A DNA stretch of 64,000 bases from a virus (lineage: Duplodnaviria > Heunggongvirae > Uroviricota > Caudoviricetes): the IMG/VR virus record IMGVR_UViG_3300021979_000001, positions 354,948-418,947 of that record. One strand, given 5' to 3'. The translations under genes were made by a program, and so were the position numbers. The notes beneath the pieces were generated by a model. The model searched no databases and was not told where the DNA came from. It saw only the letters and a list, made by a program, of their open reading frames with translations. This document shows positions 3,190-61,893 of the stretch, in pieces (the first letter of the stretch is position 1; each line of letters begins with the position of its first letter).

Positions 3190-3266
<77 letters not shown>

Positions 3267-3277
3267 TTTGTTGCTCT

Positions 3278-3306
3278 CTTATATCGAATGGTGAAACTAT
3301 TGTCAA
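3278..3306 (-). promoter_or_regulatory. sigma70-type promoter for tRNA-Pro
   Basis: TTGACA-N17-TATAAG on the minus strand, about 11 nt upstream of the tRNA. Confidence 0.7.
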
Positions 3307-3309
3307 CAT

Positions 3310-3690
3310 TTAGTTTTCGTGAATCGAAAAATATTCTGGTCCCAATGCTGAAATCAACACTACTTTTCCAGGTAACCCATGTGGATTGTTAAGTTCATCG
3401 ATAACCGAACTCCCTATTCCATCTTCTGGATCAACTCGTAGAAGATCAGTTGGGACATTTTTAACCTGGACTACGGTATTACATCCTTTTTCTTCGGCGA
3501 ACCATAATGCGTCGTCGCTGTCAGATGACAAATACAGATACCTGCTTTGGCCCATATTTGCCCCTTGCGCCCATGAACGCGGAGTCCACCCATTTTTAAT
3601 TAAATTTTCTGCACTATGAGAACATGTTCCATGATATAACACCGGGATAATCATGGTATTTTCTGATACTATATTGATAAAATCTCGCAT
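3310..3690 (-). CDS. small ADP-ribosyltransferase-fold-like protein
   Basis: LYHGT...A..I...G...YLYLSS...A..FA pattern typical of H-type ART/PARP-like phage proteins. ATAAATA motif upstream. Confidence 0.55.
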   Translation of the reverse strand: MRDFINIVSENTMIIPVLYHGTCSHSAENLIKNGWTPRSWAQGANMGQSRYLYLSSDSDDALWFAEEKGCNTVVQVKNVPTDLLRVDPEDGIGSSVIDELNNPHGLPGKVVLISALGPEYFSIHEN

Positions 3691-3754
3691 TATTATCCTA
3701 CGTTAACATGATGCGATTATTTATCTAATATTTCAGGTCAAAACAAAAAACGAA

Positions 3755-3830
3755 TGGTGCCGGGGAACGGATTTGAACCGCTGACACCCGCCGCTTCAAG
3801 ACGGTGTTCTACCAACTGAACTACCCCGGC
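3755..3830 (-). tRNA. tRNA-Phe(GAA)
   Basis: GCCGGGG/CCCCGGC acceptor, CCGTC-TTGAAGC-GGCGG anticodon arm, GGTTCAAATCC, CCA. Confidence 0.9.
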
Positions 3831-3841
3831 ACAAAAAAAGA

Positions 3842-3916
3842 TGGTGTCCCCAACGGGATTTGAACCCGTGCTTTCACCTTGAAAGGGTGATGGCCTAACC
3901 ACTAGCCGATGGGGAC
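3842..3916 (-). tRNA. tRNA-Glu(UUC)
   Basis: GTCCCCA acceptor, TCACC-CTTTCAA-GGTGA, T-arm, CCA. Confidence 0.95.
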
Positions 3917-4209
3917 TATTCTGTTTTGATATATTTACGAATCTTTTTCCGCAAATCAAAAGTAAATGGTCGCTCGTTTTTCTCCAACAAATCTGTTACC
4001 AACGTAGAACATGTAATTCCGCATGAACGCAATGAAACGTCTTCACTTTTTGGTTTCCCAGTAGTAAAAACTCCGGTAATTTCTTCATTGTCAATATCAA
4101 CCACAAAAAAATCGCGATTTTTTACATCGTTGATGTTACGGCAAACAGAAGCGAACCCATGATTTCCAAATTTTTTCGGATTAAATTCAATAACAACATA
4201 TTCAGTCAT
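3916..4209 (-). CDS. hypothetical protein
   Basis: ATG 4209 with an AAGGA RBS and a sigma70-like promoter upstream. The stop codon abuts tRNA-Glu. Confidence 0.6.
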   Translation of the reverse strand: MTEYVVIEFNPKKFGNHGFASVCRNINDVKNRDFFVVDIDNEEITGVFTTGKPKSEDVSLRSCGITCSTLVTDLLEKNERPFTFDLRKKIRKYIKTE

Positions 4210-4273
4210 ACACACATTCCTTTGATTTGTTAATTTATACATTATATATATAGTTAAACTGAATATATGTCAA

Positions 4274-4519
4274 TCAGAAAAAACGGTTTTTCTTTTCAAT
4301 AAAGTATTCCGTATCAGTATTGTAGGTCCAGGACAATATCAAATATTTGGTTCGACTTGCCTTTTTGATGCGATAGTGGATAAAGGTGTCGTCATTAAAC
4401 ACAGAAATTATTTGAAACCCGATCATTCGCAATACAGGATTACATATTACTTTCAGCAACGACCGATGATTTATGATCGATCCATCTTTTTGTTTACGAA
4501 TGATACCTAATTTTAGCAA
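4274..4519 (-). CDS. hypothetical protein
   Basis: 81-aa ORF that fills the gap between neighbours. Confidence 0.5.
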   Translation of the reverse strand: MLKLGIIRKQKDGSIINHRSLLKVICNPVLRMIGFQIISVFNDDTFIHYRIKKASRTKYLILSWTYNTDTEYFIEKKNRFF

Positions 4520-4553
4520 TGATTTATCCTAAATAATGTAAAATGGATTTATC

Positions 4554-5018
4554 ATGAAATTACAAGACTTATTTGAAGCAGTAAGATATGGCCCGAAAGG
4601 TTGGTTTAATACCAATGATAAGACCTGGATTGAAATATCCGGTTACTGGCACCATTCATCGTTTGTTTGGAATCATCCAGACTTGTTTTCATGGAATGAT
4701 ATATTCGGATATTCACCCGAAGATTATTTAGAGCAATTTAACCTGGCTAATATGTTACCACCCGATTATGATGAAACGATTATCGAACCATTAATAGATC
4801 ATGGTTGGGTTCGAATGACTTCAACCATGCATTCCGATAACAATCTTAATGTTTATTTAGATGCCAAGTCTGACCAACCGGCACGAACCGCTATCCGTTA
4901 TATCATCCAGAAAATCATTTCATTTCGGGATATACACGATATTACCATTCAACTAAGTGATGGCCCCGCGCTTAAGTTTGACCAGAAAACCGTTATGGCT
5001 TATCTGCGCGGGAAATGA
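4554..5018 (+). CDS. hypothetical protein with MKLQDLFE leader (possibly virion-packaged)
   Basis: 154 aa. TAAATA at 4530-4535. Oriented against the tRNA array. Confidence 0.7.
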   Translation: MKLQDLFEAVRYGPKGWFNTNDKTWIEISGYWHHSSFVWNHPDLFSWNDIFGYSPEDYLEQFNLANMLPPDYDETIIEPLIDHGWVRMTSTMHSDNNLNVYLDAKSDQPARTAIRYIIQKIISFRDIHDITIQLSDGPALKFDQKTVMAYLRGK

Positions 5019-5019
5019 A

Positions 5020-5095
5020 TGGAGAACCATGTCGGACTCGAACCGACGACACACAGATTAAGAGCCTGTTGTTCTAGCCGCTGAACTAATGGTTC
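5020..5095 (-). tRNA. tRNA-Lys(CUU)
   Basis: GAACCAT/ATGGTTC acceptor, ACAGG-CTCTTAA-TCTGT, GGTTCGAGTCC, U73-CCA. Confidence 0.92.
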
Positions 5096-5109
5096 AATAT
5101 CAAAAAAGA

Positions 5110-5183
5110 TGGTAGCGGGTCCGGGCGACGACCCCGGCTAATCAACGTTATGAGCATTGATCCTTTCCCAGCGAAGCCCCGCC
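5110..5183 (-). tRNA. non-canonical tRNA with CAU anticodon (Met/fMet/Ile2 uncertain)
   Basis: TCAATG-CTCATAA-CGTTGA anticodon arm and CCA end, but the T-loop is GTCGTCG and the D arm is irregular. Confidence 0.7.
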
Positions 5184-5204
5184 AAAAACACACTCGTTGG
5201 TAAA

Positions 5205-5281
5205 TGGTGATCCTGGAAGGATTCAAACCTACAACCTTCGGTTTCGTAGACCGACGTTCTATTCAGTTGAACTACAGGATC
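5205..5281 (-). tRNA. tRNA-Arg(ACG)
   Basis: GATCCTG/CAGGATC acceptor, TCGGT-CTACGAA-ACCGA, CCA. Confidence 0.92.
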
Positions 5282-5288
5282 ATAAAGA

Positions 5289-5373
5289 TGGTAGTCGTAG
5301 GGAGACTCGAACTCCCATGGGAAACCCCACCGGAACCTAAATCCGGCGCGTATACCAATTCCGCCATACGACC
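5289..5373 (-). tRNA. tRNA-Leu(UAG)
   Basis: GGCGGAATTGGTATACGCG D arm, CCGGA-TTTAGGT-TCCGG, long variable arm, A73-CCA. Confidence 0.95.
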
Positions 5374-5384
5374 ATTACTTAATA

Positions 5385-5610
5385 GTCGATCTATACAGAT
5401 CGAAAAGGGGGTTGCGGACGCGTTGTATCGGGGACTTGCACCCAAGACTCCAATCAATTCATAAGACCGACTTAACTTATGAATAACGTGGATTCGAACC
5501 ACATTCTCTCTACCGGCATGCCATAAATGGTGGTAGGCAACTTACATACAACACTTACCCTCACGTTATATCAATTCTTGATTATGACTTAAACGTTATC
5601 ATCATAATCC
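5385..5610 (-). ncRNA. candidate structured RNA with two T-loop-like hairpins inside the tRNA array
   Basis: Minus-strand GTGG-TTCGAAT-CCAC (5488-5502) and GGG-TGCAAGT-CCC (5431-5443), plus 7-9 bp hairpins. No cloverleaf or CCA. Confidence 0.35.
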
Positions 5611-5653
5611 ATCCTATCAACTTCGATCAGGTCAACTTATATTCTAATTTTAT

Positions 5654-5728
5654 TGGTGGAGCCAGTCGGATTTGAACCGACGACCCTTTGCTTGCAAAGC
5701 AAATGTTCTCCCGCTGAACTATGGCCCC
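5654..5728 (-). tRNA. tRNA-Ala(UGC)
   Basis: GGGGCCA/TGGCTCC acceptor with G3:U70, loop TTTGCAA, CCA. Confidence 0.95.
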
Positions 5729-5754
5729 TATTTTCGTGTTTATTTAATCAAAAG

Positions 5755-5828
5755 TGGATGCCCCTGCTGGATTCGAACCCGCGCTAATGACGCCAAAAGC
5801 CATTGTTCTACCACTAAACTAAGGGGCA
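5755..5828 (-). tRNA. tRNA-Gln(UUG)
   Basis: TGCCCCT/AGGGGCA acceptor (U1:A72), ATGGC-TTTTGGC-GTCAT, CCA. Confidence 0.9.
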
Positions 5829-5880
5829 TTAATAATTACGTTATACTACATGATGTTAATTATTGTCAACATCTTTTTTA

Positions 5881-5954
5881 TGGCACGGGTGGAAGGATTC
5901 AAACCCTCACTAACAGTTTTGGAGACCGTTGTGCTATCATTACACCACACCCAT
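5881..5954 (-). tRNA. tRNA-Trp(CCA)
   Basis: ACGGT-CTCCAAA-ACTGT anticodon arm, G73-CCA. Confidence 0.92.
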
Positions 5955-5968
5955 ATATCCATAATGAA

Positions 5969-6055
5969 TGGAGATAGTGACAGGATTCGAACCTGTGCGC
6001 GATAAAATCGTCCGGGGTTGCAATCCGGTGCAATCGACCACTCTGCCACACTATC
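5969..6055 (-). tRNA. tRNA-Cys(GCA) with an atypical long variable arm
   Basis: GATAGTG/CACTATC acceptor, loop TTGCAAC, U73, 15-nt variable region ACGATTTTATCGCGC. Confidence 0.88.
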
Positions 6056-6068
6056 ACCAGTAAAAAAT

Positions 6069-6155
6069 TGGAGGACCGGGTGAGATTCGAACTCACGCTG
6101 CGCTTTCGCGAACGGATTAAAAGCCCGCTGCCATCGACCGCTCGGCCACCGGTCC
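6069..6155 (-). tRNA. tRNA-Lys(UUU) anticodon on a class II (Tyr/Ser-like) body
   Basis: GGACCGG/CCGGTCC acceptor, GCGGG-CTTTTAA-TCCGT, variable arm TCGCGAAAGCGCAGC, U73-CCA. Confidence 0.85.
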
Positions 6156-39651: not shown

Positions 39652-40176
39652 TTATTGCTTCGTGCGTTCCAGTTTTTCCCGCCCACGTGTCCATGCAGCG
39701 GCACCGAGAATAGCCCCAAACGATATGTGAAATAGTCCGCTCTGCTGTAATGTTAACGGTTCCCATGTTCGACTTTGTTCCAGCACTTTTAATGCCTCTA
39801 CTTGGGCGGTTGGATTATCCAGTTGTGCTACTATCTTAACCATTTGATCCGGTGGCATTTTTGTATTAGCCCATTCGTTATAAGATGGCATTAATACAAA
39901 ATCGAAAACACAAATAAACAGGTAAACTGCCGCCGCTACCGGTCGCCAATGGGATGTCAACCAGGTCTCGTTATTTGCGGCTGGGTGAGCGGTAATTACA
40001 TCACCGCCGTAGGCAGCACCATAACCACCATAGCCACTGTAGCCCCCATTATAACCGCTCCCACCACCATTGTAACCACCACCATAACCTTTATTATGTG
40101 ATGGTCCGTATCGTGAGCCGTTATCTGGTGGGCAATCGGGATTATCTGGATTATCGGGACGCATAATTTTATACAA
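39652..40176 (-). CDS. holin-like membrane protein with a Gly/Tyr-rich N-terminus
   Basis: WRP...Y..IC.FDF...P and GLFHISFGAILG..AWTRG.EK. Located in the late block. Confidence 0.55.
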   Translation of the reverse strand: MYKIMRPDNPDNPDCPPDNGSRYGPSHNKGYGGGYNGGGSGYNGGYSGYGGYGAAYGGDVITAHPAANNETWLTSHWRPVAAAVYLFICVFDFVLMPSYNEWANTKMPPDQMVKIVAQLDNPTAQVEALKVLEQSRTWEPLTLQQSGLFHISFGAILGAAAWTRGREKLERTKQ

Positions 40177-59811: not shown

Positions 59812-60226
59812 GGCTTATTTTCTCCAAATCATTGATTGCATTTTTGGTCGCAGTATTAACGCGTTTTTCGATCAATCCTGGCTTATGCTGTGCAAGATCA
59901 GATAGGTTATGTTTTCGCAATAACAATTCAAGATTTTTTGAGTGTGATCGTTCCGTAGATAATTGACTATCTAGATTTTCAAGTCGGGCTGTGTCTTTTT
60001 TCGATAACTCAATGAGATTCTTAATATTATTGTTAAGTGATTCATTTGATACTTTAAGTGATTTGTTTTCATCGCTTAATGTAGTCACGTTAGTAGTAAG
60101 AGAAGAAATTTTGCTTTGTGACCAGAAGAAATATGTGGCAGCAGAACCAATAAGAATAATTAATGCAAGGACACCAATACCGATAATCCATTTAGTGGGA
60201 ATAATTTTAGAAATGAAACCAAACAT
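59804..60226 (-). CDS. i-spanin-like protein (Rz-like)
   Basis: N-terminal TM, long coiled coil, LA..KPGLIEKRVN. ATAAATA at 60256. Confidence 0.7.
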   Translation of the reverse strand: MFGFISKIIPTKWIIGIGVLALIILIGSAATYFFWSQSKISSLTTNVTTLSDENKSLKVSNESLNNNIKNLIELSKKDTARLENLDSQLSTERSHSKNLELLLRKHNLSDLAQHKPGLIEKRVNTATKNAINDLEKISRE

Positions 60227-60344
60227 ATTCTTCCTGCCATATTACTGTGTTTTGTTATTTATACGATCATAAACTATTATAGTTCGTGGCGTGAAACCAC
60301 ATTCGTATTACCTTGCGGTAATACTCATGCTGGTTCCCCACCCG

Positions 60345-60407
60345 TTTCACTTCGTAATGAACAATCATTGCTCTTACATCGCAATGACAGTTCATTACGA
60401 AGTGAAA
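60345..60407. repeat. long inverted repeat (18-bp perfect arms plus 7-bp inner stem)
   Basis: TTTCACTTCGTAATGAAC / GTTCATTACGAAGTGAAA. Confidence 0.85.
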
Positions 60408-60544
60408 AGTTTTTTACAGGAATTATTAGTTAGTAATGAATGATCATCAGTATGTGATAAAGAATTATCATTTGAATAATCGTTACTAACTTATGATATT
60501 TGATTTATAATTTTTATATATGCATCCTAGATTTGTGTCATCTT

Positions 60545-60653
60545 TTTATCCCCCCTGTTGGCCCAATAATATCGTGTTCATCCTATAAGACATGGTTATA
60601 CATAATCCTATAGGATGCCAACACGATATTATTAGACCAACAAAGAGGATAAA
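60545..60653. repeat. ~110-nt interrupted inverted repeat
   Basis: Arms AATAATATCGTGTT/AACACGATATTATT, CATCCTATA/TATAGGATG, TGTTGG/CCAACA and TTTATCC/GGATAAA. Confidence 0.85.
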
Positions 60654-60659
60654 TTTAGT

Positions 60660-61147
60660 GGGAAAAAATACTTCCTGAGTTCTTAGCCACTCTCAATAAA
60701 GCGACGTAACCACATTACATGGTTGCTGGCGGTTTTCCGAAACCAGCTTGTTGCCGCCCTTATCCGGTCAGTTAATCACACCCATATAGAGACAGTTCGG
60801 GGATTTACCTTGCCTGTCAGGTTGATTATCTATCGACCAAAACGGTTATGAAAATAATTTATGATTTTCAAGCGCATGCACCTGGCACAATTGAGGGACC
60901 GGTGCATGTGTATAGTTGTCAAAGATGTCTAGACATAGCTATACTCTTTCATCGTGCCTTTTTCCACAACGCAATGTGTGGCAAGCGGCTGTTTACATAA
61001 TCGCGCCACCGTAAGTGTGGACTATGTAACCGGCTTGTTGCTCGTTCTTGCAGGTAAACCCCGGTCAGATGATCCCGGATGGACTTACTTTGGGACGAAA
61101 GTGGCCCCGATTACTTTCTGAACGTTATGAGGGTATCGTCGATACCA
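60660..61147 (-). ncRNA. candidate large structured non-coding RNA (~490 nt)
   Basis: No credible ORF, GC-richer than the flanks, many nested stems, and a minus-strand TTGACC-N18-TATATT promoter at 61153-61182. Confidence 0.5.
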
Positions 61148-61263
61148 AAATTAATATATGACATATCGTCGATTTGGGTCAATATAAATGTTGACGACAT
61201 AACCCATCCTGGATTAGCGTTTGCAGATTACGATTTTTGCCTGGATCACATGGAATGGAAGAT

Positions 61264-61893
61264 ATGACATTACGCAAATATATACGTAGTCTTGAAATAG
61301 CGAAGAATATGGGATGTTTCTTTGTTTCTTTCATCAATATGGCAAAAAACTCTGACAATATTGATCGGTTTGAGACGCGCATATTTATGTCAGCATCAAA
61401 AAACATATCGCGAAAACATTGGGAAGTGAAATACAAGGTGGCCGATATGGCTAATATGATTACGATTGTCGTATACGAAAACAAGGTAAGTATATCTGGT
61501 CCACAAACATTATTTTCAACAAGTAGATATTGGTCACGGCGTTTGTCCAAAACGATTAACCGCATTCATGGTATGAAAACAAACAACGGCCCACAAGTAG
61601 ATATTGATATTAATAATAAAACCAATCTAGTTCAAGAATTTGTTGAAAAGTATAAAGCAAATATTAGCAATAACCGGATAACAGAACTATCATATAATCG
61701 ATTTCCTTATTCGGTGATCATCACGGCACCGGAATATGGCACGGTAGATTTTTTAATAGGCATTTCATCACAATTTGTTGGTGATTTCATGTATGCACGA
61801 AAAAATGATCAACATCATCATATTGTCTATTTTGAAAAAAACGAGGATTTCACCTTAGCTAAACTATCATTAGATCGATTAAACAGAAATTAA
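61264..61893 (+). CDS. hypothetical protein, paralog of 61970..62575
   Basis: Shares FI.M.KN.DN, S.YWSRRL, ISSQF.G.FM and YFEK.ED. Confidence 0.75.
   Translation: MTLRKYIRSLEIAKNMGCFFVSFINMAKNSDNIDRFETRIFMSASKNISRKHWEVKYKVADMANMITIVVYENKVSISGPQTLFSTSRYWSRRLSKTINRIHGMKTNNGPQVDIDINNKTNLVQEFVEKYKANISNNRITELSYNRFPYSVIITAPEYGTVDFLIGISSQFVGDFMYARKNDQHHHIVYFEKNEDFTLAKLSLDRLNRN

Follow-up and report, generated by a model that had tools for sequence, protein, structure and literature searches.

The question raised by this locus is what occupies a 0.95-kb gap between genes in a 64,000-nucleotide stretch of phage DNA. The stretch analysed, referred to here as the window, comprises bases 354948-418947 of the 457,165-bp virus record IMGVR_UViG_3300021979_000001, which was judged complete. 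As the original prediction had stated, the gap (60227/60273-61178), which is free of open reading frames (ORFs), is the largest in the window apart from a transfer RNA (tRNA) cluster, and the sequence within it (60660-61150) is richer in GC (45.8%) than its flanks (31-35%) and the window (39.7%). The gap is predicted to encode a highly structured non-coding RNA of about 600 nucleotides, transcribed from its own promoter on the minus strand. This RNA represents a new family that Rfam 15 does not contain and that belongs to a known kind (the large ornate RNAs of phages). An RNA of about 490 nucleotides at 60660-61182 had been proposed earlier; the RNA was upheld, whereas its 3' part had been cut off, because the hairpin at 60545-60653 belongs to it and brings it to about 600 nucleotides. 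The unit and its promoter are as follows.

60545-61146, minus strand: predicted RNA of about 600 nucleotides; 5' end placed from the -10 box, 3' end from the conserved terminal hairpin
61153-61182, minus strand: sigma-70-type promoter TTGACC-N18-TATATT, 10/12 matches, the best site in the region

The evidence for this RNA is mainly comparative. Four diverged paralogs, each in a gene-poor gap of about 1 kb, were identified by an nhmmer search of the phage's own genome, with E-values of 7.5e-51 to 8e-19 against the copy in the window (copy A).

Copy A: genome 415174-416183, listed as plus (this window)
Copy B: genome 199524-198847, minus strand
Copy C: genome 306302-305546, minus strand
Copy D: genome 125951-126581, plus strand

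The block of nhmmer homology among the four genomic copies extends over approximately 60516-61188 of the window and includes the hairpin at 60545-60653. When the 3' domain was modelled from copies B, C and D, with copy A left out, the resulting covariance model recovered copy A with 52.7 bits (E 4e-13). The same model gives 53.5 bits for a homolog, E, which is present with identical sequence in two IMG/VR records. Homolog E lies between orthologs of the genes flanking copy A (a protease, DnaJ, a spanin and a right-hand gene) and is therefore the positional ortholog of copy A; the earlier suggestion to look for homologs upstream of spanin genes was thus borne out at the syntenic locus of a related phage. 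Another homolog, F, is carried by a 3.3-kb metagenome contig. It was found by a motif scan of 241 million metagenome records, which yielded 57 stretches, and was the sole one confirmed by a covariance model (62.1 bits). In these large database scans, exact motifs served as a prefilter for the covariance models.

A looser scan of IMG/VR gave a seventh candidate in IMGVR_UViG_3300006129_000012 (L188:3830-4240, minus strand), which scores 29.4 bits (E 1e-5) with the 3'-domain model; the middle-domain model finds nothing there. This locus is shorter and AT-rich, and it has the tail-hairpin-repeat layout of the family: its promoter has the box TTGACA, its tail contains GGCUAUGAACUCAUCAGAAAG, its hairpin of 14 bp is capped by a GUAA loop, and AUCUUUCAGAAAA is the repeat found downstream. 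It is probably a shorter member of the RNA family. A further stretch located 3 kb from ortholog E (G002:51509-51604, equivalent to L044:1501-1596, minus strand) reaches 13.4 bits (E 0.2) with the 3'-domain model. It is either a very diverged second copy or a chance match and was not counted.

The minus-strand promoter had been noted in the original prediction, and the -35/N18/-10 arrangement can be read at the equivalent relative position upstream of all six homologs (A-F). The -35 and -10 boxes are TTGACC/TATATT in A, TTGACT/TATATT in B, TTGACA/TATTAT in C, TTGACT/TACTGT in D, TTGACC/TACCTT in E and ATGACA/TATTTT in F. The RNA-sense strand is the minus strand of the window, because the G-U pairs of the fold would become A-C mismatches on the other strand and because the sense strand folds with the lower energy. 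In the 3' domain, 21 of 120 cells of the alignment are G-U pairs, and one pair is G-U in all six sequences. The full-length minimum free energy (MFE) is lower for sense than for antisense in 6/6 homologs, and the terminal hairpin gives -67.8 vs -45.4 kcal/mol (sense vs antisense) in A, -60.3 vs -40.4 in D and -37.2 vs -28.1 in E. No open frame was found in any homolog, with at least three stops in each of the six frames, and the indels between copies are not multiples of three.

The fold consists of about 17 helices with several multi-helix junctions, a GNRA-capped hairpin, a long-range pseudoknot and invariant single-stranded motifs. Two domains were tested on tool-made alignments of the six homologs, and the other helices were read directly from the sequences. 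The main elements are listed below from the 5' to the 3' end of the RNA.

61092-61118, minus strand: 5' element, in which S1 (GAAAGU/ACUUUC) is interleaved with hairpin S2 (GGGGC/GUCCC) with a 0-nucleotide connector
61061-61078, minus strand: H2 hairpin, (U)CCGG/CCGG(G); compensatory CCAG/CUGG in C, extra loop hairpins in E and F
60982-61037, minus strand: H3 (CAAGC/GCUUG) around the variable hairpin H4 (60993-61029); compensatory CGAG/CUCG in D, E and F
60964-60981, minus strand: H5 hairpin, CCACA/UGUGG; covarying as ACAGAA/UUCUGU in C, CGGGG/CCCCG in D and GCAGAG/CUCUGC in F
60870-60959, minus strand: three-way junction closed by AGGC/GCUU and holding H6 and H7, from the covariance-model alignment of six homologs
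60910-60944, minus strand: H6 in the three-way junction, with inner UGUC/GACA and conserved UUUGACA
60875-60908, minus strand: H7 in the three-way junction, whose loop carries the 5' strand of the pseudoknot
60890-60900, minus strand: pseudoknot 5' strand in the H7 loop, GGUCC-CUCAAU, pairing with 60685-60697
60842-60869, minus strand: variable H8 hairpin followed by the invariant AUAACCGU motif (60842-60849)
60763-60841, minus strand: H9 domain, with closing helix UUUGGUC/GACCGGA around an irregular long hairpin
60699-60759, minus strand: 3' domain, in which H12 (GGGCGGC/GUCGCUU) closes the junction of H10 and H11
60725-60747, minus strand: H10, with a GAAA or GCAA tetraloop (GNRA type) in 5/6 copies
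60708-60724, minus strand: H11, in the junction of the 3' domain
60685-60697, minus strand: pseudoknot 3' strand AUUGAG..GGCU, just 3' of H12

In the two domains aligned by covariance models, pairing reaches 96-97%, and 22 of the 37 base pairs carry compensatory changes. The middle domain (H6 with its inner UGUC/GACA helix, and H7) has 96.1% pairing and changes on both sides in 12 of its 17 pairs, whereas slid registers give 18-48% pairing and none of 500 shuffles was as good. The 3' domain is 97.5% paired, with 10/20 pairs changed on both sides (slid registers 24-50%; shuffles as good, 0/500). The sequence of H4 differs in every copy and always forms a hairpin; the H4 hairpins of A and B require G-U pairs on the minus strand. 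The nested helices of H9 recur in the MFE folds of the copies. Its closing helix is GGUC/GACC in this copy and covaries as GACCU/AGGUC in B, CGGCC/GGCCG in F and ACGUGAU/AUCACGU in D, and its hairpin loop bears the conserved GCAAGG..AUCCCCGA motif (60797-60814).

The long-range pseudoknot, as deduced from complementarity, ties the middle domain to the 3' tail. It combines an invariant GUCC, pairing with GGCU, and an adjoining variable stretch that covaries and is perfectly complementary in 6/6 homologs: CUCAAU/AUUGAG in A, ACCAAU/AUUGGU in B, CCCAAU/AUUGGG in C, UUCCA/UGGAA in D, UCCAUUCAG/CUGAAUGGA in E and CCUUCAUA/UAUGAAGG in F. Six motifs are unpaired and invariant (AAAAGGC, UUUGACA, AUAACCGU, GCAAGG..AUCCCCGA, UAGGUG and ACUCAGG), which suggests tertiary contacts or ligands. 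For a family of so few sequences, this comparative support is unusually good.

The abundant covariation among homologs, together with the promoter, bears out the earlier reading of the locus as a large structured non-coding RNA. Seven of the nine stems originally proposed coincide with comparatively supported helices: 60993-61029 with H4, 60964-60981 with H5, 60910-60944 with H6, 60873-60910 with H7, 60849-60870 with H8, 60725-60747 with H10 and 60706-60726 with H11. The stem at 60820-60838 is not conserved and has to be abandoned, as the comparison puts other helices, those of the H9 domain, in its place. The proposed long-range helix (60798-60810 with 61052-61063), which overlaps the 3' strand of H2, can form in copy A with 11 bp and one bulge; it has 7 bp in copy B and 6 bp with one compensatory change in copy C, and is absent in D. 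Similarly, the internal repeated module that had been described is present in copy A and weak in the other copies. The proposed check of folding energy gave a moderate result: 60660-61182 folds better than its shuffles with z of -1.85 on the plus strand and -2.81 on the minus strand. Since these values are only moderate, the single-sequence test does not decide the matter, and the decisive support is comparative.

The 5' element differs from the rest of the fold. Here the loop of a hairpin, GGGGY...RYCCC, is paired with the 5' strand GRAAGU, and both stems covary. S1 is 96.7% paired, with 3/6 pairs changed on both sides, and its sequence is copy-specific (GAAAGU, GGAAGU or GGAGU); S2 is 84% paired in the MAFFT register and better when aligned by hand. 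The geometry of H-type pseudoknots precludes the full formation of both stems within a single chain when the connector is 0 nucleotides, and S1 and S2 therefore cannot both form fully within one chain. The element may thus be a conformational switch or an intermolecular contact that drives self-assembly, the latter being judged somewhat more likely. Intermolecular contacts in GOLLD and OLE were first inferred by the same logic and then seen (PMC12286853). Pairing of the S2 loop with a second GGAAGU in the tail was also considered; it is complementary in A and B only, and the 5' copy is preferred.

The tail of the RNA contains a long hairpin between two imperfect direct repeats.

60669-60682, minus strand: tail motif X1 (AACUCAGGAAGUAU), an imperfect direct repeat of X3
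60545-60653, minus strand: terminal long hairpin of about 50 bp with 7 G-U pairs
60520-60534, minus strand: downstream motif X3 (AAAUCUAGGAUGCAU), which may lie inside or just past the transcript

The terminal hairpin has a conserved base, C/U-rich on its 5' side and with CAGGGGGG on its 3' side, which is followed by an A-rich run; the upper stem has another sequence in each copy and stays paired. A conserved G6 run and an A-rich tract follow the hairpin. In the original prediction this hairpin was a separate adjacent element. That interpretation is not retained, because the hairpin lies within the conserved unit and its G-U pairs are on the RNA-sense strand. X1 comprises about 10 nucleotides after the ACUCA of the tail, and X3 about 10 nucleotides after an AUCUA downstream of the terminal hairpin. 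The two motifs co-vary copy by copy, with four sequence types among seven copies: GGA in A, B and E, AGAU in C, UCAGA in D and the L188 locus, and GGGUAAUGAU in F. Within the genome, ATCTAGGAT is confined to the neighbourhood of copies A and B. No common pairing partner of X1 and X3 was found at homologous positions of the RNA body. Two explanations of the repeats were rejected: a third X copy in the 3' arm of the terminal hairpin, for which within-copy scores are no better than cross-copy scores, and CsrA-type GGA sites, since copies C, D and L188 have no GGA. About 140 nucleotides past the terminal hairpin, a second long hairpin is present at 60345-60407. It is followed by TTTTTT on the plus strand and resembles a plus-strand terminator, yet no plus-strand gene precedes it; by BLAST it is homologous to sequence downstream of copy C (genome 306194-306299).

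Known RNA classes were searched for with the 4227 models of Rfam 15, applied to window positions 60200-61400 at E<=10 and to the five homolog loci at E<=5. None of the six loci matched RNase P RNA, group I or II introns, 6S RNA, GOLLD, ROOL, transfer-messenger RNA (tmRNA) or any other family, which supports novelty; the only matches were chance-level ones of microRNA precursors to the long hairpins. ARAGORN found no tRNA or tmRNA in the four copy loci, the tRNAs of the genome lying elsewhere. The earlier remark that the element is not recognisable as RNase P, tmRNA or an intron therefore holds. A tmRNA had also been considered on account of a phage-encoded SmpB gene (smpB, L002:2694-3122, plus strand) about 560 bp downstream of RNA copy B. 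It was rejected, as a permuted (two-piece type) tmRNA with the tag ANDNVASNMAVAA lies elsewhere, at genome 160209-160554. A true GOLLD RNA (RF02032) is located at genome 352780-353233 on the minus strand, about 1.7 kb left of the window start and directly upstream of two tRNA genes. It scores 177.9 bits (E 1e-49), above the gathering score of 150, and has no relation to the family described here. With a true GOLLD and a tmRNA elsewhere in the phage, the present RNA is neither. A search of the available literature found no such RNA described in Atu_ph07-like phages and no further ornate class in phages.

As to function, the favoured reading, given a probability of about 0.55, is that each copy yields an independently transcribed RNA of about 600 nucleotides that acts in trans in the manner of GOLLD and ROOL and possibly self-assembles. 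The RNA would be made by host RNA polymerase early in infection as an independent transcript, its terminal hairpin would probably define and protect the 3' end as an RNase III-type substrate, and it would act as a folded RNA and not as a messenger leader or a DNA site. Self-assembly would possibly proceed through the 5' S1/S2 element. The genes downstream are co-directional in A, B, D and E and convergent in C, and the arrangement at C argues for an independent unit. In a more specific and doubtful version, the four paralogs would assemble by themselves, as homo- or hetero-oligomers, into a particle made of RNA only or rich in RNA, in which S1/S2 serves as an intermolecular zipper; the 5' strand of one chain would pair with the hairpin loop of the next, and the copy-specific S1 would set the partners. 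Several observations weigh against a trans-acting RNA of the GOLLD and ROOL kind. No intrinsic terminator was found after the RNA, nor before the next genes in copy A, and both transcript ends are placed indirectly, from the -10 box and the terminal hairpin. The copies are not beside tRNA genes, unlike GOLLD and ROOL. Minima of GC skew near the copies fit a replication role at least as well. Finally, the family is narrow, and the complete relatives G001, Phosso and Atu_ph07 have no match.

The main rival is an RNA associated with replication origins, because, of the five prominent minima of cumulative GC skew, three (198.4, 304.8 and 414.2 kb) are no further than about 1 kb from copies B, C and A, respectively, a coincidence with a rough chance probability of about 3e-4. 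Each copy would then mark an origin, and the 3' part of the transcript would stay hybridised to DNA at or past the G-run, the A-rich tract and X3 as an R-loop and prime the leading strand, as at oriF and oriG of T4 or in ColE1, with a conserved folded primer RNA defining the origins of a jumbo phage. The dispersal of the copies (126, 199, 306 and 416 kb), the promoter at each of them, the conserved G6 run and A-rich tract after the hairpin, the resemblance of the tail motif X1 to the downstream DNA motif X3 and the 77% AT of the flank of copy A are all consistent with such a role. However, skew minima in phages track gene orientation, and copy A lies exactly at a strand switch. The minima were located at 40000, 198400, 246600, 304800 and 414200; those at 40 and 246.6 kb are without copies, and copy D has only a weaker minimum about 6 kb away. 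The AT content downstream is ordinary in B, C and D, at 71-73% where the genome as a whole averages 62%, and in ortholog E an ORF starts about 65 nucleotides after the hairpin. The earlier proposal of a primer RNA for the adjacent AT-rich element thus loses the AT-rich tract as an argument in three copies, while the skew minima near A, B and C speak for it. X1 and X3 differ among copies of one genome and so are not sites for one common initiator protein, and the conserved tertiary architecture (pseudoknot, GNRA loop, invariant loops) exceeds the needs of known primer RNAs. An origin RNA is accordingly regarded as unlikely, if well worth attention. A cis-acting leader that affects the downstream operon by processing, antitermination or stability is improbable. 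The operon in question would comprise the spanins, DnaJ and Clp-like protease in copy A and ortholog E; the position upstream of these genes is kept between two phages, the downstream genes of A, B, D and E are co-directional, and copy A has no terminator before the next genes. A role as leader only is nevertheless unlikely, because the downstream genes of the paralogs are unrelated and those after copy C are convergent. In addition, 600 nucleotides with a closed pseudoknotted fold are far beyond known leaders, and Phosso has the same operon with an upstream gap of 120 bp and no such RNA.

Two other explanations are weaker still. The RNA might be a divergent member of a described large class (GOLLD, ROOL or another) that was missed by the Rfam models. 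Its phage habitat, similar size and multiple pseudoknots are shared with these classes, and the GOLLD gene indicates that this phage carries large ornate RNAs; against this stand the absence of any GOLLD (RF02032), ROOL (RF03087) or other large-RNA match at six homolog loci at E<=5-10 by the same tool that finds the real GOLLD at 177.9 bits, the lack of adjacent tRNAs and the conserved motifs, which are presumably unlike those of the GOLLD and ROOL classes. This explanation is very unlikely. Least credible is an element acting as DNA, such as a mobile-element remnant or a recombination or packaging site, whose palindromes and direct repeats would be the functional parts. The long inverted repeat between the imperfect direct repeats X1 and X3 and the four dispersed copies would suit it, whereas about 17 helices kept by compensatory changes, mismatches that are almost all G-U on one strand only (one of them invariant), a conserved promoter and the absence of transposase or integrase neighbours do not. 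Independent insertions are also argued against by an indel that X1 and X3 have in common in every copy.

The RNA family is real but narrow, being present in three to four phage lineages. When the region was compared by BLASTN with 50,697 phage records, nothing matched, and a BLASTN-type search of five relatives (G001-G005) was equally negative. The motif TTGGGRYGRAAGTGRCCCC occurs in 7 IMG/VR stretches, none homologous by nhmmer, and a search for relatives by way of DnaJ retrieved distant loci only. Covariance models R1, R2 and R3 found nothing significant in G001 (424 kb, complete), Phosso, Atu_ph07 and two other jumbo-phage records. A pattern scan of 185,579 bacterial and archaeal genomes gave 58 stretches, of which none was confirmed by a covariance model. 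No nhmmer match was obtained at the syntenic loci of G001, Phosso and Atu_ph07; the locus is densely coding in G001, and the gap in Phosso is just 120 bp. In Atu_ph07 (MF403008.1), the locus syntenic with copy A has a 1.3-kb gap (229450-230745; L177:1751-3046) with one annotated ORF of 50 amino acids. Downstream of this gap are the spanin-like genes, DnaJ and Clp protease. No homology to the RNA family is detectable in the gap, which could harbour another RNA or one that has diverged very far.

The source is a jumbo phage of 457 kb related to Atu_ph07 and Rak2. Its family-B DNA polymerase shows 48-51% identity with the enzymes of two jumbo phages, Sinorhizobium phage Phosso and Agrobacterium phage Atu_ph07, 44% with the Rak2/121Q group and 56-61% with three uncultivated IMG/VR records. 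The permuted type of its tmRNA, together with its relatives, suggests an alphaproteobacterial host. To the left of the gap, the minus strand encodes two Rz-like spanins, a DnaJ protein and a Clp/Lon-like protease; the genes to the right, which have no assigned function, are on the plus strand, and copy A is situated exactly at this strand switch. The tRNA cluster of the window contains 11 genes (3193-6155, minus strand; Rfam). The same phage also carries a gene for a small Smr-domain protein (L002:350-679, plus strand).

Large, intricately folded non-coding RNAs with no assigned function are rare, the best known being GOLLD, ROOL, OLE and raiA. Two phage-borne ornate RNAs have been shown by cryo-electron microscopy to build RNA-only cages larger than the ribosome (PMC12286853). 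A further unrelated class of about 600 nucleotides, with four long-maintained paralogs in a jumbo phage that also bears GOLLD, would be a new and well-defined object for structural and genetic study. If self-assembly proved true, a third independent class of cage-like phage RNA would join GOLLD and ROOL, and it would be the first in which one genome supplies several paralogous subunits. If the copies instead mark origins, the RNA would count as the first origin RNA with a conserved fold from a T4-related jumbo phage, and the replication start sites of these phages would become testable. Because the family is confined to three to four phage lineages in very large databases, its reach is for now specialist and not general.

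Among known systems, ColE1 RNA II and the T4 origins oriF and oriG resemble the present RNA in being promoter-driven transcripts of roughly 0.5-0.6 kb. The fold of ColE1 RNA II decides whether the transcript stays hybridised and primes DNA synthesis. The known T4 origins share no homology with one another and are not known to require a conserved RNA fold. In the present genome, several dispersed copies lie near GC-skew minima; there is no homology to these systems, neither an antisense regulator nor an RNase H site is identifiable, and most copies have no evident unwinding element. OLE is likewise about 600 nucleotides long, very well conserved and of complex fold, and dimerises via loop contacts (PMC12286853). 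However, it is chromosomal in Bacillota, with dedicated protein partners encoded nearby, whereas the present RNA has no such conserved neighbours and no Rfam match.

ROOL is an ornate RNA of about 580 nucleotides with multiple pseudoknots, borne by phages and prophages and without a known protein partner. It forms RNA-only cages (PMC12286853). The RNA described here presumably differs from it in its conserved motifs, and it has no Rfam match and lies outside a tRNA-island context. GOLLD is similarly phage-encoded and several hundred nucleotides long, with many helices and pseudoknots and no assigned function, and in both RNAs covariation supports contacts that are impossible within one chain (PMC12286853). 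The present RNA has no match to the GOLLD model and no tRNA neighbours, and it is distinguished by four paralogs per genome instead of one, by its own sigma-70-type promoter and by a long terminal hairpin with flanking repeats.

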